Assembly: GCA_035561315.1 (NCBI GenBank) | Contig: DATMXR010000112.1 | Coordinates: forward strand, 1 to 44,367 | Direction of reading: 5' to 3' | DNA: 44,367 nucleotides | Source of the DNA: Feifaniaceae bacterium | Lineage (GTDB): Bacteria; Bacillota; Clostridia; Christensenellales; CAG-138 | Shown: piece after piece, positions 25,150 to 42,829 of the stretch | Layout of the letters: each line of letters opens with the position of its first letter | Numbering within the stretch: position 1 is the stretch's first letter | Translations under genes and position numbers: made by a program | The notes under the pieces: generated by a model | Database searches by the model: none | Told to the model about the DNA's origin: nothing | What the model saw: only the letters and a program-made list of their open reading frames with translations

Positions 25150-25185
25150 AGCGCCGGTCAAATTCAGCTGAATCATGGAGAGAGT

Positions 25186-26001
25186 ATGGAAATCATCGTA
25201 TGTGTCAAGCAGGTGCCGGGAACCAACGAGGTGGAGGTCGACCCCGTGACCGGCGTATTAAAACGGGACGGCGTGGACAGCAAGCTCAACCCATACGACC
25301 TGTTCGCGCTGGAGCTTGCGTATTCGCTTTGCGAAAAATACGGCGGCCGCGTGCGGACGCTGACCATGGGCCCGCCGCAGGCGAAGGCGGCTTTGCTCGA
25401 GACGCTGTATATGGGCGCGGAAAGCGCGACTTTACTTTCGGACAGGAAATTTGCCGGTTCGGATGTGGCCGCAACGAGCTACGCGCTCAAATGCGGCGTC
25501 GAGCAGATGGGCGGTTACGACCTTATTCTCTGCGGCAAACAGACGACGGACGGCGATACCGCGCAGGTAGGGCCTGAAATGGCGGAGCTGCTCGGCATTG
25601 AGCATGCGACGAACGTATGCGAAATTATGGATGCGACGCGGGAAGACGTTACCGTCCGCATCAGCCTGGACGACAGGCTGCAGACGCAAAAAATGAAGCT
25701 GCCCTGCCTGCTGTCCATCGAGAAAGACGTCAACACGCCCCGGCTTCCTTCGTACAGGCGCATGCGCCGCATCGATGCCGGGGCCGGTCAGGTGACCGTA
25801 TGGTCCGTGCAGGAGCTTGAAACTATCGATATTGCGCGCTGCGGCCTGAAAGGCTCGCCCACGCAGGTCGAGCGGATATTCCCCCCGGAAAAGAACGCGG
25901 ATAAGCACATGCTCCATGGCAGCGGCGCGGAACTGAGCGACGCATTGGGCGCGCTGCTCAAAGAAAAGAAGCTGATATCGAGGAAATTCACATGGCGCTG
26001 A
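25186..26001 (+). CDS. etfB: Electron transfer flavoprotein beta subunit (bifurcating-type signature)
   Basis: It starts MEIIVCVKQVPG. CGKQTTDGDTAQVGP is the second-FAD-binding motif of bifurcating Etfs, where non-bifurcating Etfs have the AMP-site variant. Confidence 0.9.
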   Translation: MEIIVCVKQVPGTNEVEVDPVTGVLKRDGVDSKLNPYDLFALELAYSLCEKYGGRVRTLTMGPPQAKAALLETLYMGAESATLLSDRKFAGSDVAATSYALKCGVEQMGGYDLILCGKQTTDGDTAQVGPEMAELLGIEHATNVCEIMDATREDVTVRISLDDRLQTQKMKLPCLLSIEKDVNTPRLPSYRRMRRIDAGAGQVTVWSVQELETIDIARCGLKGSPTQVERIFPPEKNADKHMLHGSGAELSDALGALLKEKKLISRKFTWR

Positions 26002-27185
26002 ACATACATCAAGCCCTTCTCAATGAAGAGAATATCGCGCAATTGATCGCGCTCTGCCCGTTTGCCGCCATAGACGCACGGGACGGCAGACTGAACATAG
26101 GCGCAGGCTGCAGGCTTTGCAGGCTTTGCGTGACCAGAGGCCCAAAGGGCGTCATCACCTGGGAGGAAGAAGATACACAAAAGCTGGATAAAAGCGAGTG
26201 GACAGGCGTCGCGGTATTTGCCGAGCGCAGGGGCGAGAGCATTCATCCCGTTACGCTGGAACTGCTAGGAAAAGCCAGGGCGCTTGTAAAAGTCACGGGG
26301 CATCCCGTATACGCGCTGGCGATCGGCAGCGGAATGACGGATATCGCAAACGAATTGCTGCATTACGGGGCGGACAAGGTATTCGTATACGACGACGCGG
26401 CCTTGGACCGGTTCTCCATATCCCCCTATGCCAACGCGTTTTATGATTTTATAGAGCGCGCCAGGCCGTCGTCCGTACTGGTCGGCGCGACCAATATCGG
26501 CCGTTCGCTCGCGCCCAAGGTGGCGGCGCGCTGCGGCGCGGGGCTTACCGCGGACTGCACGGCGCTGCAGATGCGGGAAAACACCGATCTTGTGCAGATC
26601 CGCCCCGCGTTCGGCGGCAACATCATGGCGCAGATCATAACGCCTAATGCCCGCCCGCAATTCTGTACGGTGCGGTATCGGGTATTCGCGACGCCCCGGC
26701 GTACGGAGCGCGCAGAAGGCGAGATCGTGCGTGTGCCGGTGGACGCGCGGATGCTTGCAAGCGGCACTGCGGTGCTCGGCGTCGTCAAAAAGCCCGCGGA
26801 GATCGACCTTTCCGAGGCGGAGGTGATCGTGGCGGCGGGCAGGGGCCTCAAAAGCGCGAACGACATGCGGATGATAGAAGAGCTTGCGGAGCTTCTTGGC
26901 GCACGCGTCGCGGGCACCCGCCCATTAATAGAGGCCGGGTGGCTGGACGCCAAGCGGCAGATCGGGCTTTCGGGGCGTACCGTCAAGCCGCGGCTGCTGA
27001 TCGCAATCGGCATATCCGGCGCGGTGCAGTTCACAGCGGGCATGAAGGGCGCCGATTGCATCGTGGCCATCAACCGCGACGAACACGCGAATATATTCGA
27101 TGTGGCGCACTACGGCCTGGTAGGCGACCTTTATGAAATTGTGCCGATGCTGATCGCCGGCATCCGGGAGGGCAGGTATGTATAA
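25992..27185 (+). CDS. etfA: Electron transfer flavoprotein alpha subunit with N-terminal ferredoxin-like domain (LctC/CarE-like)
   Basis: The N-terminal Cys set is LCPF...[10 protein letters not shown]. The C-terminal FAD motif is [15 protein letters not shown]...VAINRD. It overlaps etfB by 10 nt. Confidence 0.9.
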
Positions 27186-28569
27186 GAAAATCGACGAAGC
27201 CGACATCGCGTATCTCATACGCATCACGTCGCCCGGGCGCGTCGTCACGGGCAACGCCATCAGCCCCGATTACAGCCACGACGAGCTGGGCGGCGTCGAA
27301 CTCCTGCCCGATGTGCTTGTAAGAGCCGTTTCCACGGAGGAAGTCGCCTCCGTGATGAAATACGCCAACGAACAGCATATTCCCGTGGTGGCGCGGGGGA
27401 GCGGCACGGGCCTTGTGGGCGCCGCGGTCGCGCTGCACGGCGGCATCATGCTCGAAACCGCGCTGATGAACAGCATACTGGAGCTGGACGAAAACAACCT
27501 GACCGTTACCGTGCAGCCCGGGGTGCTGCTTATGGAGCTTGCCGCCTTCGCGGAGGCGCGCAAATTCCTCTATCCCCCCGACCCGGGCGAAAAGACGGCC
27601 ACGATCGGCGGCAACATCAGCACGAACGCGGGCGGCATGCGCGCCGTAAAGTACGGCGTCACCCGCGATTATGTGCGCGGCCTGACGGTGGTGCTGCCGA
27701 CCGGCGAGGTCATCAAAACGGGCGGGAAAGTGGTAAAGAACAGCACGGGCTACAGCATCCAGAACCTCATCGTGGGTTCGGAGGGCACGCTTGGTATCAT
27801 CACCGAAGCGGTCTTAAAAGTGATCCCGCTGCCCGCGGTCACGGTATCGCTTTTAATTCCGTTCTCCTCCATCCGGGAGGCGATCGGGACCGTGCCCCCG
27901 CTCGTCAGGAGCCGCGCCTCGCTCACCGCGGTCGAGTTCATGGAACGGGATACCATACTCTTTGCGGAAGAATATCTGGGCAAGCGGTTCCCCGACACCA
28001 AAGCCCCGGCGTACCTTTTAGTGACCGTGGACGGAAACGACCGCGCGGCCGTCGACAAGGAACTCTCCATGATCGCGGATCTCTGCATCAATGAGGGCGC
28101 GCACGACGCCTATATCGTGGACACCGACGAGCGCAAGCAGTCCGTCTGGAGCGCGCGGGGCGCGTTCCTGGAAGCCATCAAGGCCTCCACCGACGAGCTG
28201 GACGAGTGCGACGTCGTGGTCCCCCGCGATAAAGTGGCGGAATTCATCCTCTACACGCATGAGATCGCGCAGGAACTCCATGTGCGCATCCCCAGCTTCG
28301 GGCATGCGGGGGACGGCAACCTGCACGTATACGTCTGCCGCGACGGGCGGGGCGAGGAGGACTGGAAGCGGGTGCTCAACTTAGCCTTTGACCGGATGTA
28401 TTTGAAGGCGCGGGAAATGAACGGCCTGGTTTCGGGCGAACACGGCATAGGCTATGCGAAAAAACGGTATATGGCGGAAACGTTCGAGAACGGGCAGTTG
28501 GAGCTCATGCGCGGGATCAAGCGGGCGTTCGACCCCAACGGCATTCTGAACCCGGGAAAATTGTTCTAA
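27178..28569 (+). CDS. FAD-linked oxidase (GlcD / D-lactate dehydrogenase LctD-like 2-hydroxyacid dehydrogenase)
   Basis: The FAD_binding_4 motif is [15 protein letters not shown]. The C-terminal region [12 protein letters not shown]...[10 protein letters not shown] is typical of GlcD/Dld. It overlaps etfA by 8 nt. Confidence 0.9.
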
Positions 28570-28591: not shown

Positions 28592-29527
28592 CTATTCCCG
28601 CAGGGCGTCGCAGGCGATCTTTATAAAATCGCGCGCGGCGTTGGAAAGATAGCGGCTGCGGTCATAGCAAATGGCCAGCGTCCCGGAGGCGGAAGCGTCC
28701 GTAATGGGGAAATAGTCCACGGTTTCATCCTCCCCGGGGTTCATGCCGTGGATGTGTTTGAGGAACAGCTCGGGGTAGACGGCGATCCCCATCCCGTTCT
28801 GCGCCAGCGCGTAGGCCGTTTCCGTGTTTTCGGTCTCAAAAAGCACATTGAGCTTCACGCCGCGGGAACTGGTGTAGCCGTCGATCAGGCTGCGGATCCG
28901 GTTGCCTTTCTTCAGCAGGATGAACGGCATATCCTCAAAGCAGGAGATATCCGCCGAAATCGAGAATTTGCCGCGCATATATTCAGAGTGCTCGCCAAAG
29001 AGCGTTTTTGACAGCTTCCTGGGCACAAGCAGCAGCAGCCGCTCCACGGCCAAGGGGATGATCTCCACCGATTCGAGCGTGACGGGGGTGAATACGATCA
29101 TCAGGTCGATGCGCCCGTGTTTGAGGTGATCCTCCAGCTCCGCGGAGTTTCCCTCCATCACGGACGTCTCTATGAACGGGTTCTTTTCGTGGAACCCCGG
29201 CAATATCTTGGGCAGTATGGCGCGGCCGCAGGTATGGGACATCCCTATGCGAAGCGCGCCGCGGCGCTGCCCCGCGATATCGTCCATCTCGCTGTACGCC
29301 TGCCGCTCCAGATCCAATATCTTTCGGGCGAACGTCTCCAGCCTGACGCCCGCGTAGGTAAGCGCGAACACCGGCGTCCGGTCGAAAAGCTTTACATTGA
29401 GGTCCTTTTCCAGCGCCGCGATATGCGCGCTCAGGGATTGCTGGCTGATGTAGAGGCGCTTTGCGGCCCTGGTGACGTTCAGCTCCTCCGTGACCACAAG
29501 AAAATACTTCAGGCTCGTAAAATTCAT
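28592..29527 (-). CDS. LysR-family transcriptional regulator
   Basis: Trimmed to the ATG at 29527. The N-terminal HTH is MNFTSLKYFLVVTEELNVTRAAKRLYISQQSLSAHIAALEKDLNVKLFDR. It is 311 aa and divergent from the glutamate mutase operon. Confidence 0.9.
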   Translation of the reverse strand: MNFTSLKYFLVVTEELNVTRAAKRLYISQQSLSAHIAALEKDLNVKLFDRTPVFALTYAGVRLETFARKILDLERQAYSEMDDIAGQRRGALRIGMSHTCGRAILPKILPGFHEKNPFIETSVMEGNSAELEDHLKHGRIDLMIVFTPVTLESVEIIPLAVERLLLLVPRKLSKTLFGEHSEYMRGKFSISADISCFEDMPFILLKKGNRIRSLIDGYTSSRGVKLNVLFETENTETAYALAQNGMGIAVYPELFLKHIHGMNPGEDETVDYFPITDASASGTLAICYDRSRYLSNAARDFIKIACDALRE

Positions 29528-29546
29528 ATCTGTTCCGGTCCGCTCT

Positions 29547-29568
29547 ATCACAATCAAAATGCTGTGAT
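29547..29568. promoter_or_regulatory. Inverted repeat ATCACA-N10-TGTGAT, a candidate LysR-type operator
   Basis: This perfect 6-bp dyad lies 20-40 bp upstream of the lysR-family start codon. The spacing differs from the classical T-N11-A core, so the call is low confidence. Confidence 0.3.
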
Positions 29569-29659
29569 GAAATGTGCGTATTATGTGTTGGATATTGTTA
29601 TAAACCGATGTTACCATCATAGCATAGCATAAGGGAAAAGTCACCGGTAGTCTTGAGGA

Positions 29660-29668
29660 TGGTATATT
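29660..29668 (+). promoter_or_regulatory. Candidate extended -10 promoter element (TGgTATATT) for the glutamate mutase operon leader
   Basis: TG-n-TATATT sits at 29660-29668. The -35 region (gtcacc) is poor. This rests on pattern only. Confidence 0.3.
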
Positions 29669-29788
29669 GCGAGTCATACGGGCGGAGCAAGGTTCCAGAG
29701 ATACGGTCGCCGGAACAGCCCGGCGCGCCCGAACAGGCGCCGCCGGATTTGGCATGCCGCGGCCGTACCGGCGGCCCCTGTGGAAAAC

Positions 29789-29818
29789 GCCCGCGCATAT
29801 TCGTGGGCTTTTTGTTTG
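29789..29818 (+). terminator. Intrinsic-terminator-like hairpin plus U-tract inside the 5' leader of the glutamate mutase operon
   Basis: The sequence is gcccgcg-catatt-cgtgggc (7 bp including one G.U) followed by tttttgtttg. It lies about 150 nt upstream of the glmS-type start and is preceded by a GC-rich region with nested helices (29705-29713 pairs with 29768-29776; 29721-29726 pairs with 29737-29742). Confidence 0.5.
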
Positions 29819-29968
29819 CCGCTCCTTCCGGCTGCGGCCGGATGAGCTTCGGGGGCGCGGGATCACTTGAAACGATTGGTAAGCGCGACAGGGTCCAGGC
29901 TGTGGCGGAATTGATAAACATGCGGCGCTGCGGCGCTATCTTGCCTTGCGGAGGCGAAGACGCGAAAA

Positions 29969-30379
29969 ATGAAGAAAAAGCTGGTCATGGGCGTGATCGG
30001 GGCGGACGTGCACGCGGTGGGCAACAGGATCCTCTACCATGTGTTTACGGAAGCGGGCTTCGAGGTGGTCAACCTGGGGGTCATGGTTTCGCAGGAGGAG
30101 TATATCGACGCCGCCGTGGAAACGGGCGCGGACGCCATCGTGGTATCGTCCCTGTACGGGCACGGGGAACTGGATTGCCGGGGCCTGCGCGAGAAGTGCG
30201 ACGAAGCGGGCCTGAAGGGAATCCTTTTGTACGCGGGCGGCAACCTGGTGGTGGGCAAGCAGCCCTTCGACGAAGTGGAGCGGCGCTTTCTCGCCATGGG
30301 ATTCGACCGGGTATTCCCCCCGGGGGCCGATCCCCAGGCGGCGGTCGCGGCGCTTAAGGAGGCGCTTCAAATTGACTGA
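29969..30379 (+). CDS. glmS: Glutamate (methylaspartate) mutase sigma subunit, B12-binding
   Basis: 136 aa. [22 protein letters not shown] carries the DxHxxG cobalamin-ligand motif. The rest is closely similar to clostridial MutS/GlmS, recalled from memory. Confidence 0.93.
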
Positions 30380-31772
30380 GCCCGTGCTGCTCATCGATTT
30401 CGGCAGCACCTACACCAAGCTCACTGCGGTGGATGTTGGCGAAGAACGGCTGCTGGGCACGGCGCAGAGCCATACCACCGTGCGGACGGATATCGGCGAG
30501 GGGCTTTCCCGCGCCCTATGCGCGCTTGAGAGCCGTACGGGCAAGCTGGAGTTTACGGCGCGCTACGCCTGCTCCAGCGCCGCCGGGGGGCTCAATATGT
30601 GCGCCTGCGGCCTGGTGCCCGCGCTGACGGGCAAGGCGGCAAAGCTCGCGGCTCTGGGCGCGGGCGCGAAGGTGGCAAAAACCTATTCTTACCAGCTGAC
30701 CGGCGCGGACATCCGGGAGCTCGAGCGCATCGGCCCGGATATCCTGCTGCTGACCGGCGGCACCGACGGCGGCGACAGCGCGTGCATCCTGCACAATGCG
30801 CGCTCCCTTGCGCAAAGCGCGCTTATTTGCCCCATCGTGCTGGCGGGGAACCGGAGCTGCGCCGAGGAATGCGCGGCGATCCTCTCCGCCAAACGGGTGT
30901 ATATGACCGCGAACGTGATGCCGCGGTTCAACGAGCTGGATATCAAGCCCGCGCAGGAGTGCATCCGTTCCATATTTATGGAGCGGATCGTCTGCGCCAA
31001 GGGGTTAAGCGGCGCGCAAAGCCTGCTTGACGGCATCGTGATGCCTACGCCTGCGGCGGCGTACCGGGCGCTGGAGCTGCTCTCCAAAGGCTGCGCGGAC
31101 GAACCCGGCCTGGGCGAGCTGATGGCCGTGGACCTGGGCGGCGCCACAACGGACGTGTACTCCATGTCCGGCGGCGAACCGCGCCAGCCCAACACGTTCG
31201 TCAGCGGGCTGACGGAGCCCTACGCCAAGCGCTCCGTGGAAGGCGATATCGGCATGCGGTTTAACGCCCTTGGCATATTGGAAAGCGCGGGGAGAGAGCG
31301 CATCGCGGCTTTATGCGGCCTTGCGCCCGAAGAAGCCGAAGCCCGCGTGCGGGCTTTGGCCGCGGACCCTAAGTACCTGCCCCAAAGCGGGGAGGACGCC
31401 CTTCTCGATCACGCGCTCGCCTCGCTCGCGGTGGAAATCGCGGCCATGCGGCACGCGGGTACGCTCGAGAGCGTATGCACCCCTTTGGGCTGGTCGTACC
31501 TGCAAACAGGCAAGGACCTGCGGGACGTAACAAAGCTGGTGCTGACCGGCGGGGCGCTGATACGCGCCCGGGGCGTCGGGGGGATCGCCGCGCGCGCCCT
31601 GTACAGCGAGGAACAGCCGATGTCGCTCAGGCCCGTCCGGGCCGAGGTGCTGCTGGACGGGCAATACATCCTTTCCGCAATGGGGCTTTTGAGCGTCACC
31701 CATCCCGGCGCGGCGCTGCGGATATTGAAAAAGGAGTTGACGAGTTATGGATCTGTGCAACAGGAAGCTTAG
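30372..31772 (+). CDS. glmL: Glutamate mutase accessory protein MutL/GlmL (ASKHA-fold putative reactivase/chaperone)
   Basis: [16 protein letters not shown] is the N-terminal phosphate-1-like motif. The gene sits between the S and E subunit genes. It starts with TTG at 30372, or possibly GTG at 30384. Confidence 0.85.
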
Positions 31773-33195
31773 CGACGAGGCGTTCCATTCCATCCGGGCC
31801 GATGTGCTCAGGCAGTGGCCCACGGGCGCGGATGCGGATTTTGACCGGGGCGTAGCGTACCACAGGCGGCTTCCCGGCAGCAAGGTATTCTCCGAAAAGC
31901 TCAGGCGCGCCGACGAGGCGGGTGCAACGCTGGTGCAGCCGCGCGCGGGCGTCGCCTGTATCGAGGACCATATCACTTTGCTCAAATACCTGCAGGATAA
32001 CGGCGAGGCCGATCTTCTGCCCACCACGATCGACAGCTACACGCGTTTGAACCGCTACGAGGAGGCGGAAAAGGGCATCCGCGAAACCGAACTGAGCGGC
32101 AAATCCATGCTCAACGGCTTCCCGGCGGTCAACCACGGCGTACCCGGCTGCCGCAGGATCATAGAGGCGCTCGATACGCCCGTACAGGTGCGGCACGGCA
32201 CGCCGGACGCGCGCCTGCTGGCGGAAATCAGCTACGCGGGCGGCTTTACAAGCTTTGAGGGCGGCGGTATTTCCTATAATATCCCTTATGCAAAAAACGC
32301 GACTCTTACGCGCACCATACGGGACTGGCAGTACGTAGACAGGCTCACCGGGATGTACGAGGAGGCGGGCGCGCCCATCAACCGCGAGCCCTTCGGCCCG
32401 CTGACGGGCACGCTGGTGCCGCCCTGCGTTTCCCACGCCGTGGCCATCATAGAAAGCCTGCTGGCGGCCGAGCAGGGCTGCCGCAACATCACCGTAGGGT
32501 ACGGCCAGTGCGGGAACCTGGTGCAGGACGTCGCGGCGATCGAGACGCTGCGCAGCCTGACCGGGGAATATCTTACACGGTACGGCTACGGCGACGTCGC
32601 GCTCACCACGGTGATGCACCAGTGGATGGGCGGCTTCCCGCAGGACGAAGCAAAGGCGTTCGGCGTGATCGCGCTGGGCAGCGTGGCGGCCGTACTCGGG
32701 AAGGCCACCAAGATCATCGTCAAAACGCCGCACGAGGCGTTCGGGGTGCCCACCATGGAGTCAAACGCCCAGGGTTTAAGATGCACGCGGCAGGTGATCT
32801 CCATGCTCAGCGACCAGAAGCCGGATGAAAACAGCCTGGCGCTGGAGCGGAGCGTCATAGAGGCCGAGACCCGCTGCATACTCGATAAATGCTTCGAGCT
32901 GGGCGGGGGCGATATCGCCGCGGGCGCGGTGAACGCGTTCGAGGCGGGCGTGCTGGATATCCCCTTCGCGCCCAGCAAGTACAACAAAGGCCTGATGCTT
33001 CCCGCGCGCGACAACGAGGGCGCGGTGCGCATGCTAAAGCCCGGCGCGATCCCGCTCTCCCCCGACCTGATGGAATTCCACCGGGAAAAGATCGAGCGGC
33101 GCGCCCAAACGGAAAGACGCAGCGTCAGCTTCCAGATGGTGATCGACGATATCTACGCCGTGGGCAAGGGCCGCCTGGTCGGCCGCCCGCGCTGA
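31747..33195 (+). CDS. glmE: Glutamate (methylaspartate) mutase epsilon subunit
   Basis: 482 aa. The N-terminus [27 protein letters not shown] parallels clostridial MutE/GlmE (MELKNKKWTDEEFH...QQWPTG, recalled from memory). Confidence 0.93.
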
Positions 33196-33222
33196 ATAAA
33201 TTCCGGAATTCGGAGGGAACAG

Positions 33223-34482
33223 ATGCGCATCAAAAAGGTTTTGTATGCGGGCGGACGCACCGGCTTCTTTTTCGACGACCAGAAGGCTATCAAGGCCGGG
33301 GCCGCGGCGGACGGGGAGGCGTACCTTGGCAAGGCGTGTACGCAGGGCTTCTCCGCCGTGCGCCAGGCGGGCGAATGTGTGTCCGTGCTGCTGCTGCTCG
33401 AGGACGGACAGCTGGCCTGGGGGGACTGCGCCGCCGTGCAGTATTCCGGCGCGGGCGGCAGGGACCCGCTGTTTTTGGCGCGGGACTTTATACCGGTCAT
33501 GGAGGCGTACGTCACCCCCGCGCTGGAGGGAGCGGAACTGACCACATTCCGCGGTATGGCGGAGAAGATCGAGGGGATCGTCACGGCGGAAGGCGCGCGG
33601 CTGCATACCGCCGTCCGCTACGGCGTGACCCAGGCGCTGCTGGACGCGGTGGCAAAATCAACGCATAGGCTCATGTGCCGGGTCATCGCAGACGAATACG
33701 GCTGTACAATGTCCAGGCGGCCCATCCCCATATTCGCGCAGTCCGGCGACAACCGGTACGCCAACGCCGATAAAATGATATTAAAAGGCGCGCAGGTGCT
33801 CCCCCACGCGCTCATCAACAATGTGGACGCCAAACTGGGCAGGCACGGCGAGCTGCTTTTGGAATACGTCGGCTGGCTCCGGGAGCGGATACTCAAACTG
33901 CGCCCGGAGGAAAGCTACGCCCCCGTGCTGCACATCGACGTGTACGGCACCATCGGGCAGGCGTTCGGGAACGACAATTATGAAGCCATGGCGGAGTACC
34001 TGGGCCGCCTATGCGAGGCCGCAAAGCCTTTCCGCCTGCGCATCGAGGGGCCCATGGACGCGGGCGGCAGGCAAGAGCAGATGGAGGCGCTCCGCGACCT
34101 TCGCCGGGCGGTGGACGAACGCTGTATCCCCGTGGAGCTTGTGGCCGACGAATGGTGCAACACGCTGGAGGATATCGTATATTTCGCGGACAACCGGGCG
34201 GGCCATATGATACAGATCAAGACGCCGGACCTGGGCGGCGTCAACAACGTGGCGGAGGCGGTGCTTTATTGCAAACAAAAGGGCATCGGCGCCTATCAGG
34301 GCGGCACGTGCAACGAGACGGAGCGCTCGGCCCAGGTTTGCGTCCATATCGCGATGGCGGCGCAGCCCGACCAGATACTCGCCAAGCCCGGCATGGGCGT
34401 GGACGAGGGGTACATGATCGTCTACAACGAAATGCGCCGCATTTTAACGCTCAACGAATACTTGGAAGGAGGCAGGCAATGA
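33223..34482 (+). CDS. mal: 3-methylaspartate ammonia-lyase
   Basis: 419 aa. MRIKKVLYAGGRTGFFFDDQKAIKAGA parallels clostridial MAL (MKIVDVLCTPGLTGFYFDDQRAIKKGA, recalled from memory). The body is enolase-superfamily. RBS GGAGGG lies upstream. Confidence 0.93.
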   Translation: MRIKKVLYAGGRTGFFFDDQKAIKAGAAADGEAYLGKACTQGFSAVRQAGECVSVLLLLEDGQLAWGDCAAVQYSGAGGRDPLFLARDFIPVMEAYVTPALEGAELTTFRGMAEKIEGIVTAEGARLHTAVRYGVTQALLDAVAKSTHRLMCRVIADEYGCTMSRRPIPIFAQSGDNRYANADKMILKGAQVLPHALINNVDAKLGRHGELLLEYVGWLRERILKLRPEESYAPVLHIDVYGTIGQAFGNDNYEAMAEYLGRLCEAAKPFRLRIEGPMDAGGRQEQMEALRDLRRAVDERCIPVELVADEWCNTLEDIVYFADNRAGHMIQIKTPDLGGVNNVAEAVLYCKQKGIGAYQGGTCNETERSAQVCVHIAMAAQPDQILAKPGMGVDEGYMIVYNEMRRILTLNEYLEGGRQ

Positions 34483-35840
34483 AAGAGGAGTTCCGCATAC
34501 TCTCCGCAACCGCCATACTGGGCTACGGGTTTCCCAAAGCGTCCTTTGAGGAGGGCATGAAACGCCGCCCCCACCTGATCGCCGCGGACGCGGGTTCCAC
34601 CGACCCGGGCCCCTATTACCTGGGCGCGGGCGTCTCCTTCACGGACAGGAACGCGGTCATGCGCGACCTTGAGATCATGCTGCTTTCCGGCATCCCGAAC
34701 GGCATCCCCGTCGTCATAGGCACGGCGGGCGGCAGCGGGGCGGAGCCCCACCTTAGCTGGTGCCGGGAAATCATCGAGGAGATCGCCCGCAGGCACGATC
34801 TCCATTTTAAAATGGCGCTCCTCCACGCCGAATTTGATAAGGGCATGCTTTTACAGGAGCTTGCCGCCGGGCGCATCGCCCCGCTCCCTCCCGCGCCCGC
34901 GCTGACGGCAGGCGATATCGAAGCGTCCAGCCACATCGTGGGGCAGATGGGACTTGAACCCATCATGCGCGCGCTCCATAGCGGCGCGCAGGTGGTGCTG
35001 GCCGGGCGGGCGTACGACCCGGCCGTGTTCGCGGCGCCCGCGGTCTTAAAAGGATACGACAAGGGCCTTGCCGTGCATCTTGGCAAGATACTCGAATGCG
35101 CCGCCATCTGCGCCGCGCCGGGCAGCGGCTCGGACTGCATGTTCGGCTGCATCGGTGAGGACTACTTTACCGTGGAGCCATTGAATCCCGCGCGCAAATG
35201 CACCACGCTTTCCGTGGCTGCCCACACGCTGTACGAAAAGACGAACCCCTACATACTGCCCGGGCCGGGCGGACACCTGGACCTGACGGACTGCCGCTTC
35301 GAGCAGCTGACGGACAGCGCCGTCCGGGTGACGGGCAGCCGGTTTGTCCCCGCAGCAAGCTATACCGTGAAGCTGGAGGGAGCGAAAAAGATCGGGTTTC
35401 GCACCGTTTCCATCGCGGGCACGCGGGACCCCGTCATGATCGCCGGGATCGACGAGATCACCGCGGGCGTGCGCGAGCGCGTGGCGGACAATTTCCGCGA
35501 GAACGGCTGGGATTACCGGCTGCATTTTATACTCTACGGGCGCGACGGCGTGATGGGGCCTCTGGAGCCCGCCCCCGGCACCGAGGGCGTCCACGAGCTG
35601 GGCGTCGTGATCGAGGCGGTGGCGGACACTCAGGAAAAAGCCGACACCATCTGCGCCTTCGCCCGCTCCACCATGCTGCATTACGGATACGCGGGCCGCA
35701 GGGCCACGGCGGGCAACCTGGCGTTCCCGTACTCCCCCAGCGATTTTCACGCGGGGGAGGTCTACGTATTCAGCGTATACCACCTGCTGCAAACGGAGGA
35801 CCCCGCCGCCCTGTTCCCCGCCGAACTGATCGCGCTGTAA
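34479..35840 (+). CDS. AtuA-like (DUF1446 family) protein of unknown function
   Basis: Trimmed to the ATG at 34479 (MKEEFRILSATAILGYGFP...), which forms an ATGA overlap with the mal stop. It is 453 aa. The family call comes from remembered resemblance to 'acyclic terpene utilization AtuA family' proteins and from the adjacent DUF4387-like gene. It needs an HMM check. Confidence 0.65.
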   Translation: MKEEFRILSATAILGYGFPKASFEEGMKRRPHLIAADAGSTDPGPYYLGAGVSFTDRNAVMRDLEIMLLSGIPNGIPVVIGTAGGSGAEPHLSWCREIIEEIARRHDLHFKMALLHAEFDKGMLLQELAAGRIAPLPPAPALTAGDIEASSHIVGQMGLEPIMRALHSGAQVVLAGRAYDPAVFAAPAVLKGYDKGLAVHLGKILECAAICAAPGSGSDCMFGCIGEDYFTVEPLNPARKCTTLSVAAHTLYEKTNPYILPGPGGHLDLTDCRFEQLTDSAVRVTGSRFVPAASYTVKLEGAKKIGFRTVSIAGTRDPVMIAGIDEITAGVRERVADNFRENGWDYRLHFILYGRDGVMGPLEPAPGTEGVHELGVVIEAVADTQEKADTICAFARSTMLHYGYAGRRATAGNLAFPYSPSDFHAGEVYVFSVYHLLQTEDPAALFPAELIAL

Positions 35841-35850
35841 GGAGCATGCC

Positions 35851-36168
35851 ATGAAGACGAAGCTTACCGAAATCGCGGACATCATCCGCAGCAAGAACTC
35901 GGGTCCCTACGAGCTGACGATGGATATCCTGTTCAAGGACTTCGAAAGCTTTGAGCGGGTATGCAGGGCCAAAGCCATCGACGAAGAGACCGTCTGCCGG
36001 CTCTATGGCGTAAAGCCCGAGGACATCATCAACATCGTGGAATTCAAGCCCGCCAAGGCGATCAAGATCACCATACGGCGCCCCCTGTGCTCGGGCGACC
36101 CGGGCGAGACGGACGTCTACGGCGCGCAGCAGCACGCCCCGCTGCTGTACCTCGAACTCGATATTTAA
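35851..36168 (+). CDS. DUF4387-like small protein (corresponds to the C-terminal part of full-length AtuA)
   Basis: 105 aa, starting MKTKLTEIADIIRSKNSGPYELTMDILF.... RBS GGAG lies upstream. The family was recalled from memory, not searched. Confidence 0.6.
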   Translation: MKTKLTEIADIIRSKNSGPYELTMDILFKDFESFERVCRAKAIDEETVCRLYGVKPEDIINIVEFKPAKAIKITIRRPLCSGDPGETDVYGAQQHAPLLYLELDI

Positions 36169-36181
36169 AGAGGAGGGCAAT

Positions 36182-37105
36182 ATGTCGTATTCCGCCCGGA
36201 TGCAGAAGAACCATCTGTACAGCGTCTTTCTGGCCCCGCGCGGATATGTGCGCATGGCCGACCTGGGCATGCAGATTGCCCAGCAATATTTGAGTCCCTT
36301 CGACAAGCTTATAGGGCTGGTGGGCGACGCGGGCTCGGGCAAGAGCATGCTCGTCAAGGGCATGTTCCCGGGGCTGGAGCTGACCAACGACGACGAAGGG
36401 GTGAACGTGCGGCCCCTGCCGCTAATGGACCTCGGCGACGACAGCGGCTTCTATTCGCCGCACACCTACCATGTGGATATCCGTTTCGAGACGGCCTTCC
36501 ACCAGCCGCACGTACTAATCGAGGCCATACTGGAGGCGATCGACCGCGGCAAGCGGGTGGTCGTGGAGCATTTCGACCTCATCTACCCCGCGCTCGGGCG
36601 CAACGCGCATCTTTTGATCGGCATCGGGGAGGAGGTCATCATCACCCGCCCAAGCCTGTTCGGCCCGGAGCCCGAGGAGCTGCGCGAGCGCGTGTTCCCA
36701 TCCCTTCCCTACCGGCTCAGGGCGCATACCGCCGAGGACCTGTGCGAATACGTCATGAACGGAAATTGCCCGCGCTACGAGCACGCAGACGTGCGCCACG
36801 GGTTCATACTGAGTTTTGAAAGCAAGCCCGCCTTTTCGCCGCCGGAGCTGATGGAAAAGGTGCAAAAGCTCATAGACGCGGACCTCCCCATTTCGTTTCT
36901 GGACGACAACCACATCCGGATCGGGGACACGCCCCACCGCTGCACGGGGCCAAGGATGCATGTAAAAAGGACAAAAGAAATCGGCCGGTTTCTGCTGCTG
37001 GAGGATTTTTACCCGGAGCCGATCACCGAACGCTGCCTGATGGTGGGGCTTGTCGGCGAGGGCTGCGATTACAAGTCCAGCGATATCAACCGGCTGATTT
37101 TTTAA
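36182..37105 (+). CDS. Hypothetical P-loop (Walker A) protein, family not recognised
   Basis: 307 aa. It has a strong RBS (AGAGGAGGG). The Walker A is LIGLVGDAGSGKSML and a possible Walker B is RVVVEHFD. It is the last gene of the glutamate mutase operon. Confidence 0.6.
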   Translation: MSYSARMQKNHLYSVFLAPRGYVRMADLGMQIAQQYLSPFDKLIGLVGDAGSGKSMLVKGMFPGLELTNDDEGVNVRPLPLMDLGDDSGFYSPHTYHVDIRFETAFHQPHVLIEAILEAIDRGKRVVVEHFDLIYPALGRNAHLLIGIGEEVIITRPSLFGPEPEELRERVFPSLPYRLRAHTAEDLCEYVMNGNCPRYEHADVRHGFILSFESKPAFSPPELMEKVQKLIDADLPISFLDDNHIRIGDTPHRCTGPRMHVKRTKEIGRFLLLEDFYPEPITERCLMVGLVGEGCDYKSSDINRLIF

Positions 37106-37122: not shown

Positions 37123-37172
37123 ACGCCGCTTTTTTGAATAGCGGCGTTTCAAATGCGGCGAACCCGCTTTTT
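37123..37172. terminator. Convergent terminator region between the P-loop gene (+) and the Ldh_2-family gene (-)
   Basis: The hairpin acgccgct-N9-agcggcgt (37123-37147) has a U-tract on the minus-strand side (auguuuuuuc). A second small GC hairpin, gcgg-cgaac-ccgc, is followed by ttttt (37155-37172) on the plus strand. Confidence 0.55.
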
Positions 37173-37193: not shown

Positions 37194-38321
37194 TCAATAG
37201 TTCTCCGCAAATCCGGTCTTTGTATCGGAAGGCAGGCAGTCCCCAAAATAAGCGTTGAAATCCAGGCCCAGATAACGGCACATGTCCAGCACTTCCGCCA
37301 TGGTGTTCCCGTGGACGGGGACCCCGTTTTTCAGCCGTTCCTCCATTGCGAGGATCTCCTTTTCGCCATGCGTATAGATGCGCTCGGCGTTCTCGGCTTT
37401 GGGCGACGCGCGAAGCTCGCGCAGGAATGCCGACATATGGGACCTGATTGCCTGCGGATCGCCAAATATCGAGGGATCTATCGCGGCGAACCCATGGCAA
37501 ATGCCTCCTTTTTTGCCCTGCATGCAGTAATTGGACGTCATGCCCAGGGAAAGGATGGAGGTAAATATCTCGCATAAAACGCCATATCCGTAGCCCTTAT
37601 GGGAGCCGAGCGTCTCTCCGTCGCCCCCAAGCGGCATAATGCCGCCTCCGTTCTTGGCGACAATGTTCCTGAGCACGTCCGGCGCGTCAATGCTGGGCCG
37701 CCCAAACTTGTTGAGCGCCCAGCCCTCCGGCAGGGGCTCGTTCTTTTTGTTATACAGTTCCAATTTGCCGCGGGTGACCACGGTGGTGGAGGCGTCAAAC
37801 AGGAAATCATACGGCTCCGCAGGCATGGCACAGGCAATCGGGTTGCTGCCCAGCATCGCCATACGCCCATAGGTCGGGACCATGATCGCTTCGCTATTGG
37901 TAAAGCTGAACCCGATGAACCCGGCGTCGCTGGCCAGCTTGGCATAATAGCCCGCTATGCCGTAGTGGTTGGAATTGCGGGCGGTCACAATGGATATGCC
38001 CGTTGTTTTCGCTTTCCTGATGGAGAGATCCATGCAGAATCTTCCGATCAGCTGCCCCATGCCGTCGTGCCCGTCCACCACCGCGGAGACAGGCGTCTCA
38101 AACACGATCTCCGGCTTCGCATGAACATCGATCATTCCTTTCTCGATGCCCTTGTGATAACGCACCATGCGCTGCATGCCATGGCTTTCTATGCCATATA
38201 AATCCGACCGCAGCAAGACGTCGGAGATAACGCGCGCCTGTTCCGCGTCAAAGCCGAAAGCCGTAAACGCATCCATGCAGAATGTATTGAGCGTGTCGAT
38301 TGAAACATACCAGTATCCCAT
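37194..38321 (-). CDS. Ldh_2 family (malate/L-lactate/ureidoglycolate/2,3-diketo-L-gulonate type) NAD(P)H-dependent oxidoreductase
   Basis: The family motif is LYGIESHGMQRMVRY. It is about 375 aa from the ATG at 38321 (MGYWYVSID...). The ORF-track start at 38342 is a TTG. Confidence 0.86.
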   Translation of the reverse strand: MGYWYVSIDTLNTFCMDAFTAFGFDAEQARVISDVLLRSDLYGIESHGMQRMVRYHKGIEKGMIDVHAKPEIVFETPVSAVVDGHDGMGQLIGRFCMDLSIRKAKTTGISIVTARNSNHYGIAGYYAKLASDAGFIGFSFTNSEAIMVPTYGRMAMLGSNPIACAMPAEPYDFLFDASTTVVTRGKLELYNKKNEPLPEGWALNKFGRPSIDAPDVLRNIVAKNGGGIMPLGGDGETLGSHKGYGYGVLCEIFTSILSLGMTSNYCMQGKKGGICHGFAAIDPSIFGDPQAIRSHMSAFLRELRASPKAENAERIYTHGEKEILAMEERLKNGVPVHGNTMAEVLDMCRYLGLDFNAYFGDCLPSDTKTGFAENY

Positions 38322-38371
38322 CTCCGCCTTGCCTCCCCCCAAAAACTGCCGTACGATTTTTGTCCGGACAT

Positions 38372-39631
38372 TCAGCGCTTCGCCAGGACATCCTTTTCAT
38401 ACCGTTTCATTTCCGCTATCCAGTCCTCGCCCGCGTACTTGCCCTGCCGCAGGCAGTAATAGTCCCAGACCGCGCCGAACGGCAGGGACTTCCGCTCCTC
38501 CTGCAGCGCCAGGCGCAGGGTATAGTCCCCCTCCCGCTCCGCCCGGCGTATCCTGCCGGAAGGCGCAAGCGCGGCGTTCAAGATGGCCTTGCGCGCGTTG
38601 CGCAGGCCGATCGTCCACGCGGCGATGCGGTTGATGGAAGCGTCAAAGAAATCCAGGCCGATCAATACGCGGTTTTCAAACCCGTTAAAAAGCACCTCGT
38701 CCATGATGCGCTGCAACTCGTCATTTAGCGCAATGACATGGTCGCTGTCCCAGCGCACGCCGCGGCTGACATGCAGCAGAATTTTATCCAGGAACCCCAG
38801 TATGGGGCTTATTTTTTCGCTGATGCTTTCCGCAGGATGGAAGTGGCCCGCGTCCAATGTATACAGCAGGTCATTCTTTAAAGCGTAAGCGAGCGAATAT
38901 TCATGGCTCGCCACCGTGTAGCTTTCCACTCCTATGCCGAAAAGCTTGCTTTCCAGCGCGCACAGCACCATGTCGCGTTCAAAATGCCCGGCAAATATTT
39001 CATCCAGAGAACGGGTCATGATCGCCCGGTAATACGCCGTATCCGCGCAGGTGTCCTTCATCCCGTCCGGCATCCAGTAGTTGACGGAGCAGGGCTGCCC
39101 AAGCTGCTTTGCGAACGAGTGCGCTATTTCCCGGCAGCGTTTTCCGTGCTCCACCCAGAACTTCCGTTTTTCCCCATTGGGGCTGGCGAGTGAAAAATTG
39201 CCGTCCATCATGGGATGGGAATAAAATGTGGGATTAAAATCCAGCCCCAGGCCGCGCTCTTTCGCCCAATCCACCCAGGTCTGGAACAGTTCAATCGTGT
39301 ACGCGTCCCTGTCCACCGTTTTCCCGTTTTTTTCCGCGTAGCTTGCATGCAGATTCAGCTTGAAGCGGCCGGGCACCATTTTGAGCGCTTCCTCCATGTC
39401 CGCGCGCAGTTCCTGCGGCGTGGACGCGCGCCCGGGATAATTCCCGGTTGTGGCAATCCCCCCGGTCAGCTCCCCTATGCTGTCAAACCCTATGACGTCG
39501 TCCCCCTGCCAGCAATGCATGGATACCGGGATGCCGTCCGCTCTCCTGATTGCCGCGTCCACATCCACGCCTTTTGCCGCGTATATCTCCTTCGCGTATT
39601 CGTACCCCCGTAAGATGCTCCCCTCGCCCAT
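38372..39631 (-). CDS. rhaA: L-rhamnose isomerase
   Basis: 419 aa from the ATG at 39631. It shows long colinear similarity to E. coli RhaA, recalled from memory: PVSMHCWQGDDV, TGNYPG, LNLHA, FNPTFYSHP, ESKLFGIG.ESYTV, LDAGHFHP, HVSRGVRWDSDHV, GLDFFDASINRIAAW. Confidence 0.93.
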   Translation of the reverse strand: MGEGSILRGYEYAKEIYAAKGVDVDAAIRRADGIPVSMHCWQGDDVIGFDSIGELTGGIATTGNYPGRASTPQELRADMEEALKMVPGRFKLNLHASYAEKNGKTVDRDAYTIELFQTWVDWAKERGLGLDFNPTFYSHPMMDGNFSLASPNGEKRKFWVEHGKRCREIAHSFAKQLGQPCSVNYWMPDGMKDTCADTAYYRAIMTRSLDEIFAGHFERDMVLCALESKLFGIGVESYTVASHEYSLAYALKNDLLYTLDAGHFHPAESISEKISPILGFLDKILLHVSRGVRWDSDHVIALNDELQRIMDEVLFNGFENRVLIGLDFFDASINRIAAWTIGLRNARKAILNAALAPSGRIRRAEREGDYTLRLALQEERKSLPFGAVWDYYCLRQGKYAGEDWIAEMKRYEKDVLAKR

Positions 39632-39681
39632 ATCGATATCCTCCTCAAAACGAATCCTATCGCAAGTTTTTTCGGGCCGAC

Positions 39682-39720
39682 GCAATCGGCAGGCATGCGT
39701 TTTCCGGCGCAGCCGATTGC
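39682..39720. other. 9-bp inverted repeat (gcaatcggc-N21-gccgattgc) in the intergenic region upstream of rhaA
   Basis: The arms are perfect and there is no flanking U-tract in the transcribed orientation. The function is unknown (RNA stem or operator). Confidence 0.3.
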
Positions 39721-39725
39721 AGGCC

Positions 39726-40766
39726 CTATTCGTTGGGATGCACGACCACGCGCAGCCCCGCATGGTCTTCCGCCGCCGCGAACGCTTCGCCGATGCGCTC
39801 CAACGGAAACCTGTGCGTGATGTATTTTTCCATGTCCACCATGCCGGAGGCTATCATATCCACCGCCTGCCGGTGATGCCTGGGCAAGGAGCCATGCGCG
39901 CCGTGGACGAACAGCTCCTTATAATGGATGATATTCGTATCCAGCGTGACCGTGCTCCCTTTGGGCAAGCCGCCGAACAGGTTGACCCTTGCCCGGTTTT
40001 TCGCCATATGCAGGGCGTCGCTGTGCGACTGCGGGCTGGGGTTGGCCGTAATCACTACGTCCGCCCCCAGCCCGCCCGTTTCCTCCAGGACCCGGGCAAT
40101 GGCGTCCTCCTCGCCGGAGCAGATATACGCGTCCGCGCCGAATTTCTTTGCCATCTCCAGCCTGGGACGCGAGCGCTGCACCACAATGATCTTGCGGGCG
40201 CCCATTTTGCGCGCCACCTCTATGATCATCATGCCGATAGGGCCCGCGCCGATAATCACGACGTCGTCGCCCAGCCGAATGCCGGACAGCTCCAGCGCGT
40301 TCAGTACGCACGCAAGCGGCTCGGCAAGCGCGGCTTCGTCATACCCCACGGAATCGGGGATTTTATGGACGGGCCCAAAGTTTACGACCATGCCGTTGAG
40401 CGGAAGATATTGCGCAAACCCGCCCTGGAACTGATAGCCCAGCGCATAATTCGTCTGGCAGTTGTTCCCTATTCCCGCCTCGCAGAAGGAGCATTCCCCG
40501 CAGGGGACGTCCGCCCCCACCGCCACGCGGTCCCCCACCGAAAAGCGGGACACATTGCGCCCTGCGGCCACAACCTCGCCCGCGATCTCATGTCCGATGA
40601 TGGCGGGCATTTTTACCCTGCTGTTGCCGTGATGGAATATGCGTATGTCGCTTCCGCATACGGCGCAGGCGTGCACCTTTAACAGGATTCCGTCGTCCCC
40701 GCATGCCGGGTCGGGTACCTGCCTTACTTCAATTTTATTCAGAGCCTCCAAGACTGCCGCTTTCAT
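39726..40766 (-). CDS. Zinc-dependent medium-chain dehydrogenase (sorbitol/threonine dehydrogenase-like)
   Basis: The catalytic-Zn motif is GHEIAGEVV, the structural-Zn motif is CGECSFCEAGIGNNC, and the NAD motif is IIGAGPIGMM. Confidence 0.9.
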   Translation of the reverse strand: MKAAVLEALNKIEVRQVPDPACGDDGILLKVHACAVCGSDIRIFHHGNSRVKMPAIIGHEIAGEVVAAGRNVSRFSVGDRVAVGADVPCGECSFCEAGIGNNCQTNYALGYQFQGGFAQYLPLNGMVVNFGPVHKIPDSVGYDEAALAEPLACVLNALELSGIRLGDDVVIIGAGPIGMMIIEVARKMGARKIIVVQRSRPRLEMAKKFGADAYICSGEEDAIARVLEETGGLGADVVITANPSPQSHSDALHMAKNRARVNLFGGLPKGSTVTLDTNIIHYKELFVHGAHGSLPRHHRQAVDMIASGMVDMEKYITHRFPLERIGEAFAAAEDHAGLRVVVHPNE

Positions 40767-41815
40767 GACCGATCCTCCTGTATGATGAACATGACCTTAT
40801 TGTAAAATACCGCGCGCTCCCGCATCATCTCAAACGGCGCGATCCCGTCCGAGAGGCCGCATCGGTGCGTAATAAACCGGCGGACGTTCAGCCGCCCGCT
40901 TCCCATCGCTTCGAGCGCCAGGCGCCAGTCGCTCCCGTGCTGCGCGTAGCTGGAATTCCAGGTTCCTGTCAGGGAGATCTGCTTTCTGAGTATCTCCCAG
41001 TAGGTATGCTGCTCCAAAGTCATTTTCCCCGCCGGATTGCCCATGGTTACAACCCGCCCGCCGATGGCGGCCGCCAATATGCATTGGCCGAGTGTCTGCG
41101 GCACGCCGGCGCCCTCGACGCAAATGTCCATGCCCCTGCCGCCGGTGATGCGCCCGATATAATCCGCAGGGTCTTCCTTCAGGGAGGATATGGCCTCGAA
41201 CCCCATTTCCCGCGCAAAGGATATTTTCCGCTCGTCAATATCCCAAAGCAGTATGCGGGACGCGCCCGCCAGGCCGGCCCAGCTCGCGAGCATCAGCCCT
41301 ATCGGCCCGGCCCCCGCGATTCCCACGGTATCCCCTATCCCTATATTCGCCCGCCGCAGCGCATGGACCGCCACCGCGGCGGGTTCCATCATGGCGCCTT
41401 CCTCATAAGAAATGCCGTCGTCCAGAAATACCAGGTTCCATGTCTTCACGGCGCAATACTCCGCAAACCCGCCGTCGCGGCGGGAGCCATAATAGCTGTA
41501 GGCTTTGCAGGTTTCGTATTCGCCCCTAGCGCAGGAGGCGCACCTCATGCAGGGCAGCATGGGAAATACCGCCGCACGGCGGCCAACAAGCCCGCTGTCC
41601 ACGCCGGGGCCCACTTCCTCTATTCGTCCCGCAAACTCATGCCCGGGGATCATGGGCATCGAATATGTGCCTTTTTCAAAAACACGCGCCAAATCGCTTC
41701 CGCAAATCCCGCTGGCGCATACGCGGAGCAGCACTTCGTCCTTTTGCAAAACGGGACGGGCCGCCTGCGTATCGTATACCAGAGTTCCGACCTCTTTTAG
41801 AACCAAAGCCCGCAT
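40763..41815 (-). CDS. Zinc-dependent medium-chain dehydrogenase (polyol / polyol-phosphate dehydrogenase-like)
   Basis: Motifs are GHEFAGRIEEVG, CMRCASCARGEYETC and IAGAGPIGLM. It overlaps the downstream dehydrogenase gene by 4 nt. Confidence 0.9.
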   Translation of the reverse strand: MRALVLKEVGTLVYDTQAARPVLQKDEVLLRVCASGICGSDLARVFEKGTYSMPMIPGHEFAGRIEEVGPGVDSGLVGRRAAVFPMLPCMRCASCARGEYETCKAYSYYGSRRDGGFAEYCAVKTWNLVFLDDGISYEEGAMMEPAAVAVHALRRANIGIGDTVGIAGAGPIGLMLASWAGLAGASRILLWDIDERKISFAREMGFEAISSLKEDPADYIGRITGGRGMDICVEGAGVPQTLGQCILAAAIGGRVVTMGNPAGKMTLEQHTYWEILRKQISLTGTWNSSYAQHGSDWRLALEAMGSGRLNVRRFITHRCGLSDGIAPFEMMRERAVFYNKVMFIIQEDRS

Positions 41816-41818
41816 ATG

Positions 41819-42712: not shown

Positions 42713-42741
42713 GGATATTCCCTCCAGTTCATGGCACGTCC

Positions 42742-42770
42742 AAAAACAACGCCTGTACCGGCGGCGTCTT
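42742..42770 (-). terminator. Small intrinsic-terminator-like hairpin (minus strand) between the FucI/AraA-family gene and the TIM-barrel gene
   Basis: The minus-strand RNA reads gacgcc-gccgguaca-ggcguu followed by guuuuu. Its 5' arm overlaps the 3' arm of the long hairpin at 42764-42829. Confidence 0.4.
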
Positions 42771-42829
42771 TGCCCCGCATCCTCCGGCGCATGTAAGCAT
42801 GCATACCGGAGGATGGGGCGCAAAGACGC
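42764..42829. repeat. Long imperfect inverted repeat (24-nt arms, 22/24 complementary, 18-nt loop)
   Basis: The arms are gcgtctttgccccgcatcctccgg (42764-42787) and ccggaggatggggcgcaaagacgc (42806-42829). The loop cgcatgtaagcatgcata contains a GCATGC palindrome. Confidence 0.7.

Follow-up and report, generated by a model that had tools for sequence, protein, structure and literature searches.

The classical clostridial gene cluster for glutamate breakdown by the methylaspartate pathway, that of the C. tetanomorphum/C. tetani type, is set out in PMC4682846 with the order glmS-glmL-glmE-mal-mesAB-citDEF-citCXG, and the overall pathway runs from glutamate to pyruvate, acetate and ammonia. A different arrangement was noted by Kronen & Berg (2015), who found mal followed by a DUF1446 gene in Enterobacteriaceae and Dictyoglomus and considered it unclear what became of citramalate in E. 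coli O157:H7. The cmlAB genes of Raoultella planticola, an enzyme of the Berg laboratory, have been used in a preprint (bioRxiv 10.64898/2026.01.16.699985) in which cmlAB alone in E. coli gave a citramalate lyase yielding pyruvate and acetate, and in which growth of E. coli was made dependent on mesaconate via FumA and Cml. Two solved structures, 9ERQ and 9EVF, are in the PDB, the second being entitled 'Citramalate lyase - ADP - pyruvate complex' and released on 2025-10-08. Here we describe an operon at positions 29969–37105 of a 44,367-nucleotide stretch of DNA from a Feifaniaceae bacterium (contig DATMXR010000112.1), the whole of which is called the window below. In this operon glmS, glmL, glmE and mal are followed by genes for an AtuA-like (DUF1446) protein, a DUF4387 protein and a Walker-A protein, the last referred to here as PL. 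Judged from sequence and modelled structure, the AtuA-like and DUF4387 proteins are best read as a two-subunit citramalate lyase, CmlAB, of the non-CitDEF type. The linkage of mal to DUF1446 genes has been known since 2015 and the puzzle posed by the genes after mal has mostly been solved by others; the window holds a cluster of this known type, in which an in-cluster mesaconase is absent and a widespread TsaE-AlaX fusion gene, that of PL, is present.

The predicted identity of the pair comes from searches of PDB sequences. CmlA, the AtuA-like protein, matched chains 9erq_A and 9evf_A, 'Citramalate lyase, subunit A (cmlA)', with an E-value of 7e-164, residues 3–442 aligning to residues 3–439, while CmlB matched 9erq_B, 'Citramalate lyase, subunit B (cmlB)', over its full length (E-value=1e-30). 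The match of CmlA to the solved CmlA amounted to 549 bits, against 70 bits for the Pfam AtuA family. An AlphaFold2 (AF2) model of the window CmlA, with a predicted local distance difference test score (pLDDT) of 81.5, gave a template modelling (TM) score of 0.90 on 9evf_A; the next-best PDB fold for this model had an E-value of only 0.06, and none came near 9evf_A. Compared with the E. coli orthologues, CmlA is 58% and CmlB 50% identical. A reading of the window made from its letters alone (the sequence-only reading) had described AtuA-like proteins as lacking an established biochemistry; this does not hold for the present pair, the 9ERQ and 9EVF chains having been deposited as citramalate lyase subunits A and B. 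By homology, the window CmlAB is predicted to convert (S)-citramalate to pyruvate and acetate.

To see which genes accompany the operon elsewhere, 80 genome loci were gathered with PL as the anchor and more were added later, so that 89 loci carrying PL were available, with about 10 kb sampled on each side of PL. The neighbouring open reading frames (ORFs) were clustered, yielding a two-subunit class I fumarase (mesAB), CitD/E/F, a CitX-CitG fusion, CitC, a GntR regulator and CobO. These families were named from representative sequences, and the Fumerase domains in loci L082 and L083 were confirmed by Pfam. Loci from a scan of genome contigs with MesA from L005 were reused as an independent sample of synteny. 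Upstream of PL, glmS-glmL-glmE-mal was found in most loci. Cml and Cit genes were never found together among the 89 PL loci, 44 of which carried Cml only, 29 Cit only and 16 neither (0 with both; Fisher p 4e-12), and mesAB was present in 17 of the 44 Cml loci. Locus L083 contains a complete operon, GntR-glmS-glmL-glmE-mal-cmlA-cmlB-PL-fumarase, and in L005, the PL of which is 81% identical to that of the window, mesAB immediately precedes glmS. In the window, as in L001 and L003, which are its two closest relatives (PL 92–93% identical), a LysR gene, not mesAB, stands upstream of glmS. Homologues of the window LysR gene were found in the corresponding place in L001, L003 and L005, and a LysR gene also occurs in E. 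coli clusters. The E. coli locus (L081, NZ_CP151009.1) has the order glmS-glmL-glmE-mal-AtuA-DUF4387-transporter-class I fumarase (FumD)-cobO, and CitDEF is absent from it. Since CmlAB excludes CitDEF but shares loci with mesaconase, it substitutes for the lyase only; that CmlAB is an alternative to CitDEF and not to mesaconase is unambiguous, and the pattern holds despite the limits of the sampling. Since it is the lyase and not the hydratase that is replaced, the mesaconase for this genome must be encoded elsewhere, presumably in trans at another place in the genome.

In the pathway proposed for the operon, the adenosylcobalamin-dependent glutamate mutase GlmS/GlmE, with GlmL as accessory protein, would convert L-glutamate to (2S,3S)-3-methylaspartate, which Mal would deaminate to mesaconate. 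A class I fumarase-type mesaconase encoded outside the window would then form (S)-citramalate, and CmlAB would act as a two-subunit citramalate lyase in the last step. With regard to the third step, housekeeping class I fumarases of E. coli are described as promiscuous mesaconases in PMC4682846. That the operon serves methylaspartate-type glutamate breakdown, with CmlAB as a non-canonical last enzyme, a mesaconase in trans and PL as an accessory, is in our judgement very probable. Several points nevertheless weigh against it. Within the 44-kb window no class I fumarase, and no mesaconase of the MesAB or FumD type, was found by tblastn with representatives from related loci or by Pfam on the remaining genes. 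The identity to the solved enzyme, at 55–62%, falls short of near-identity, and for the activity of the reference CmlAB the sources are PDB molecule names and the use of the enzyme in a single preprint. The loci compared are phylogenetically non-independent and extend only about 10 kb per flank.

The sequence-only reading had gone further and proposed that the AtuA-like protein, the DUF4387 protein and the P-loop protein together process mesaconate or methylaspartate by an undescribed route, for example through an alternative hydratase or an ATP-dependent activation, which would replace both mesaconase and lyase. Much of what it built upon stands. Neither a canonical mesaconase nor a CitDEF citramalate lyase is encoded in the 44-kb window, the same searches having found none of CitD/E/F, CitXG, CitC or CobO there; the three distal genes show translational coupling to mal and do belong to the methylaspartate-pathway operon; and the linkage is not random, the same gene order having been found again in dozens of genomes. 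Its suggestion that the AtuA-like/DUF4387 pair carries out a pathway step with a non-canonical enzyme is likewise upheld by the match to CmlAB. The undescribed character of the route is what fails, as does the choice of mesaconate or methylaspartate as substrate of the pair: full-length homology links the two proteins to a deposited citramalate lyase with bound pyruvate, the structures of which are solved. The expected anticorrelation in gene neighbourhoods was found with CitDEF (0 shared loci) but not with mesaconase: mesAB accompanies the pair in 17 of 44 loci, and FumD does so in E. coli. As for an ATP-dependent step, the solved CmlAB binds nucleotide, as shown by the ADP in 9EVF, which may be a substrate, a cofactor or an effector, and nucleotide chemistry is therefore conceivable; the P-loop gene, however, is found equally in CitDEF clusters that lack the pair, just as E. 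coli has the pair but no P-loop gene. We regard a new route around both enzymes as highly improbable.

A further alternative takes the family name at its word, the AtuA-like gene then serving the utilization of acyclic terpenes (citronellol or geraniol) and standing beside mal by accident. The Pfam AtuA match and the AtuA name carried by its relatives in public annotation speak for this. Beside the 549 bits to CmlA, however, the Pfam match is weak (70 bits) and covers only residues 95–211, no other atu genes were found in the window by Pfam annotation of its genes, and the slot directly 3' of mal is kept across phyla. Synteny and the structural match effectively refute the terpene reading, to which we give next to no credence. 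The CmlAB reading is retained in what follows.

In public records the orthologues of CmlA (P0383 and others) are named 'acyclic terpene utilization AtuA family protein' or 'hypothetical protein', and some are mislabelled '3-methylaspartate ammonia-lyase', a point made in a note within PMC4682846. None of the listed CmlA orthologues bears 'citramalate lyase' as its record name.

The features of the operon and its borders are given in Table 1. GlmS, GlmL, GlmE and Mal all scored above curated NCBIfam equivalog cutoffs and form, in one operon, the upper methylaspartate pathway; their genes are joined by overlaps or by gaps of at most 27 nt. The mal stop and the cmlA start overlap as ATGA at 34479–34482, after which gaps of 10 nt (cmlA to cmlB) and 13 nt (cmlB to PL) follow, an AGGAGG-like ribosome-binding site being present at each. 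Pfam assigned AtuA to the cmlA product with 70.6 bits (cutoff 22.8) over residues 95–211 only, and DUF4387 to the cmlB product with 136 bits (cutoff 27). The PL protein reached no family cutoff in a Pfam and NCBIfam profile search. Profile searches and ORF coordinates thus agree with the sequence-only reading on the positions and order of all seven genes, as do the letters themselves on the ATGA coupling and the two gaps, and Pfam on the two DUF assignments, strongly for DUF4387 and partially for AtuA.

Table 1. Coordinates and assignments of the methylaspartate-pathway operon and the elements bordering it (nt positions in the window).
Feature	Position	Strand	Assignment and evidence
LysR-family regulator	28592..29866	-	Divergent from glm genes; Pfam HTH_1 and LysR_substrate
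glmS	29969..30379	+	B12-binding small subunit of glutamate (methylaspartate) mutase; NF002612 219 bits (cutoff 110), TIGR01501 205 bits (cutoff 136)
glmL	30372..31772	+	Glutamate mutase accessory protein, MutL family; NF040745 586 bits (cutoff 475), Pfam MutL 536 bits
glmE	31747..33195	+	Glutamate mutase catalytic subunit; TIGR01503 744 bits (cutoff 390)
mal	33223..34482	+	3-Methylaspartate ammonia-lyase; TIGR01502 593 bits (cutoff 286), Pfam MAAL_N and MAAL_C
cmlA	34479..35840	+	453 amino acids, AtuA/DUF1446 superfamily; predicted large subunit of CmlAB-type citramalate lyase
cmlB	35851..36168	+	105 amino acids, DUF4387; predicted citramalate lyase small subunit
PL	36182..37105	+	307-amino-acid Walker-A protein, pathway-associated, uncharacterised
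Hairpin	37123..37147		8-bp G+C-rich, perfect stem between the convergent PL and Ldh_2 genes

The hairpin downstream of PL has a folding energy of -19.9 kcal/mol (z -2.8); its loop of 9 nt caused the consensus terminator scan to pass over it. Its U-tract is weak on the + strand and better on the - strand. It probably marks the end of the operon and may, to judge from its sequence, be a bidirectional terminator; the earlier claim that the operon ends at a terminator is thus borne out as to the hairpin and only poorly so as to the U-tract on the coding strand. At the other border, the LysR ORF as called encodes 424 amino acids from a GTG start, and residue 114 is the first that the NCBIfam alignments cover. 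The N-terminal extension of about 113 amino acids falls outside any family model, and translation probably starts near 29527, which would leave an intergenic region of about 440 nt ahead of glmS.

The gene for PL varies in its neighbours. Upstream it has cmlB in 42 loci, mal in 14 and citC in 4; downstream it has mesA in 18 loci, citXG in 15, cobO in 8 and citD in 6, with gaps that are often below 20 nt. Translational coupling to mal, cmlB, mesA, citC or citXG is frequent, and in L082 PL overlaps the gene for mesaconase alpha. In the CitDEF-type clusters (L105, L131 and L132 together with L009-L014, L031, L034 and L035) it is embedded among the genes for lyase activation, as citC-PL-citXG, PL-citXG or PL-citDEF. 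The first of these arrangements is the operon seen in L105, L131 and L132, and in L035 PL and citXG remain paired though glm genes are absent within 10 kb. A few PL genes stand in housekeeping contexts. PL was absent from the 17-kb E. coli cluster region and, over the 12.8 kb sampled, from L154 and L157, which are clusters of the Tissierellaceae type. Since PL occurs in both CmlAB and CitDEF clusters and is missing in E. coli, it can be counted neither as a subunit of Cml nor as a factor specific to Cit; it is an accessory protein at the level of the pathway, present in one group of anaerobes.

Other candidate identities for PL were rejected. A third Cml subunit or Cml-specific activator is incompatible with the function of cmlAB alone in E. 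coli and with the presence of PL in CitDEF clusters. A replacement for CitC was discarded on the grounds that citC co-occurs with PL in L009, L011, L013, L014, L105, L131 and L132 and that PL is also found in Cit-free clusters, and a CobO-like adenosyltransferase on the grounds that cobO itself follows PL in 8 loci. In the E. coli locus two hypothetical genes, for proteins of 314 and 140 amino acids, occupy positions 2890–4337 of L081 directly upstream of glmS; the 314-amino-acid protein was considered as a PL homolog and ruled out, the two being unrelated.

When PDB sequences were searched with PL, by sequence and by profile, only Walker-A noise came back, and fold comparison alone was informative. 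The AF2 model of PL (pLDDT 83.5) comprises two domains: the N-terminal one (about residues 1–160) resembles a TsaE-like P-loop NTPase, and, after a long helix, the C-terminal one (about residues 195–300) appears AlaX/AlaRS-editing-like. Foldseek matched the modelled N-terminal domain to TsaE/YjeE (1htw, 6n9a and 6nak) and the C-terminal domain to AlaX-M, AlaX-S and the AlaRS editing domain (9iuw, 2e1b, 3kew, 1v7o and 2zzg), the E-values of the PL matches lying overall between about 1e-5 and 1e-3. Sub-threshold Pfam matches in the PL family point the same way, to TsaE in 46 of 55 members and to tRNA_SAD in 40 of 55. The window PL scores below the TsaE cutoffs (PF02367, 16.3 bits vs 26.6; TIGR00150, 19.9 vs 60.1) and below that of tRNA_SAD (PF07973, 12.6 bits, cutoff 24; best family member E-value=1.9e-4), the tRNA_SAD alignment covering residues 254–273 with the motif C254-x5-H260. 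Some PL relatives are named 'alanine-tRNA synthetase second additional domain-containing protein' by NCBI. We know of no characterised counterpart of this TsaE-AlaX domain fusion.

The protein is strongly conserved. There are 3844 relatives sharing words with PL, and the best 120 of these 3844 are 61–92% identical to it (Clostridia, Spirochaetes and others); between Clostridia, Spirochaetes and Chloroflexi the identity is 60–70%. Clustering of the family at 50% gave 278 representatives, mostly fragments. The Walker A residues K54/S55, the E129-H130-F131-D132 motif and H201, H244, C254 and H260 are each conserved in at least 113 of 134 members, the last four in at least 124 of 134, and H206 in 94 of 134 only. 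P0147, a 293-amino-acid protein 36–38% identical to PL, is missing H201/H206 and part of the Cys-His motif, so that the putative metal site is not shared by every family member. In P0261 (577 amino acids, on a European Nucleotide Archive (ENA) metagenome contig of 3651 nt) the PL AlaX-like domain is found at residues 469–566 behind an unrelated N-terminal region of about 460 amino acids, the P-loop being absent; a genuine domain shuffle and an artefact of assembly or gene calling are both conceivable.

What we would guess first for PL, though with low confidence, is a role in quality control or maintenance that depends on ATP and is linked to intermediates of the pathway, and two versions of it may be weighed. 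By analogy with CtdA of canavanine degraders, PL might be a trans-editing factor whose AlaX-like domain would deacylate tRNA that has been mischarged with 3-methylaspartate, an amino acid closely similar to aspartate and threonine, which accumulates while the pathway runs. The structural match of the C-terminal domain to AlaX and AlaRS editing domains, the tRNA_SAD motif at C254-x5-H260 with the residues H201, H244, C254 and H260 kept in at least 124 of 134 members, and the linkage to the pathway irrespective of lyase type would fit such a role, and a standalone editing protein in a bacterium catabolising a non-protein amino acid provides a precedent (PMC10018355). Against it stand the scores under every family threshold, the lack of any known role for an ATPase domain in trans-editing, and the absence of PL from the E. 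coli and Tissierellaceae-type clusters in the regions sampled; no literature on misactivation of 3-methylaspartate by aspartyl-tRNA synthetase was found, and the acidity of PL (pI 5.6, net charge -11), odd for a tRNA binder, counts mildly. A deacylase of this kind seems unlikely to us.

Alternatively, PL may use ATP to assist or maintain one of the pathway enzymes. One candidate partner is GlmL, which we take to be an actin-fold ATPase: the two might act together in the reactivation of glutamate mutase, much as TsaE binds the actin-fold TsaB-TsaD. PL might equally serve the mesaconase or the lyase. The modelled TsaE-like fold, the invariant Walker A K54/S55 and the EHFD motif resembling the TsaE signature are consistent with this, as are the frequent translational coupling to mal, cmlB, mesA, citC and citXG, the position within citC-PL-citXG in L105, L131 and L132, and the overlap with the mesaconase alpha gene in L082. 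The same variety of neighbours means that no single partner is indicated; E. coli possesses GlmL, Mal, Cml and class I fumarase without PL, and cmlAB functions alone there. A maintenance role is accordingly put forward as doubtful. That PL, in the deacylase or in the maintenance version, is a previously unrecognised quality-control factor dedicated to the pathway in methylaspartate-pathway anaerobes is a speculation we would not expect to hold.

Other parts of the window carry catabolic genes. Directly upstream of the LysR/glm cluster, a region at 23878–28569 (+), together with genes at 22572–23864 (+) and an AraC gene at 21428–22342 (-), contains candidate lactate-utilisation genes: LarA nickel-dependent lactate racemase (NF033504, 563 bits, cutoff 460), then EtfB, EtfA and a GlcD-like FAD-linked oxidase, a set that looks like an electron-transfer-flavoprotein-coupled lactate-utilisation operon. 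At 8135–16635 (-) lies a glycyl radical enzyme of the PFL2/glycerol dehydratase subfamily (733 bits vs a subfamily cutoff of 678, and below all substrate-specific equivalog cutoffs, namely HypD, HpfG/HpsG and CutC) with its activase, a DmpG/DmpF-like aldolase and acetaldehyde dehydrogenase, a transaldolase/FSA-like protein, an Fe-alcohol dehydrogenase and a PfkB kinase; adjoining these genes, at 32–8025, are a sugar ABC transporter and a two-component system. Downstream of the operon and convergent with it, the region 37194–44360 (-) specifies an Ldh_2-family dehydrogenase, L-rhamnose isomerase (601 bits vs 572), two Zn-dependent alcohol dehydrogenases, a gene without a family match (41819–42841) and an arabinose/fucose/sulfoquinovose-isomerase-like gene. 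The top match of the Ldh_2-family gene is L-sulfolactate dehydrogenase (223 bits, cutoff 500). This region and the radical enzyme cluster hint at the catabolism of deoxy-sugars or sulfo-sugars.

The data support renaming thousands of proteins of this clade, now called 'AtuA family', 'hypothetical' or '3-methylaspartate ammonia-lyase', as citramalate lyase CmlA or CmlB. CmlAB and CitDEF act as clean alternatives at one step, and genomes without CitDEF can still hold a complete pathway from glutamate to pyruvate and acetate, which bears on the prediction of glutamate fermentation in gut and digester anaerobes. PL is a strongly conserved, uncharacterised pathway gene and a well-defined target for biochemistry; were it a deacylase or a maintenance factor, it would represent a new functional class in a textbook fermentation pathway.

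Several known systems resemble PL in part. With TsaE/YjeE, the ATPase of t6A tRNA modification, the N-terminal domain shares the small P-loop fold (Foldseek E-value about 1e-5), Walker A and an HFD-type motif, but PL scores below the cutoffs of that family, is fused to a second domain and resides in a catabolic rather than a housekeeping operon. With AlaX and the AlaRS/ThrRS editing domain (tRNA_SAD), the modelled C-terminal domain shares the fold, the aligned Cys...His motif and further conserved histidines; it differs in having Cx5H against CxxxH (the zinc motifs of the editing domain being HxxxH and CxxxH), in its sub-threshold Pfam score, in belonging to an acidic protein and in its fusion to an ATPase. 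The fold of CtdA is presumably of the B3/B4 type and unrelated to PL. The likeness to this canavanyl-tRNA(Arg) deacylase is conceptual only, that of a standalone editing protein for the catabolism of a non-protein amino acid (PMC10018355).

As to the lyase, AtuA of the Pseudomonas acyclic terpene cluster (PF07287) is a member of the same Pfam superfamily as the window CmlA, but the match is weak and partial, the context is different, and the DUF4387 partner is a separate small protein in the window. With the classical clostridial cluster the window shares the first four genes and the same overall pathway (PMC4682846); its lyase would be CmlAB in place of the ACP-dependent CitDEF with its activation genes, and its mesaconase genes would lie outside the cluster. 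The closest likeness in layout is to the CmlAB systems of E. coli and Raoultella, which have the same two genes, for an AtuA-family subunit of about 455 amino acids and a DUF4387 subunit of 105 amino acids; the E. coli system likewise shows full-length homology, has the pair directly 3' of mal and is free of CitDEF in the cluster. In contrast to these enterobacteria, the host of the window is a Bacillota-like anaerobe of about 60% G+C, and its cluster, compared with that of E. coli, is without the class I fumarase, the glutamate transporter and cobO and has the PL gene added after cmlB.

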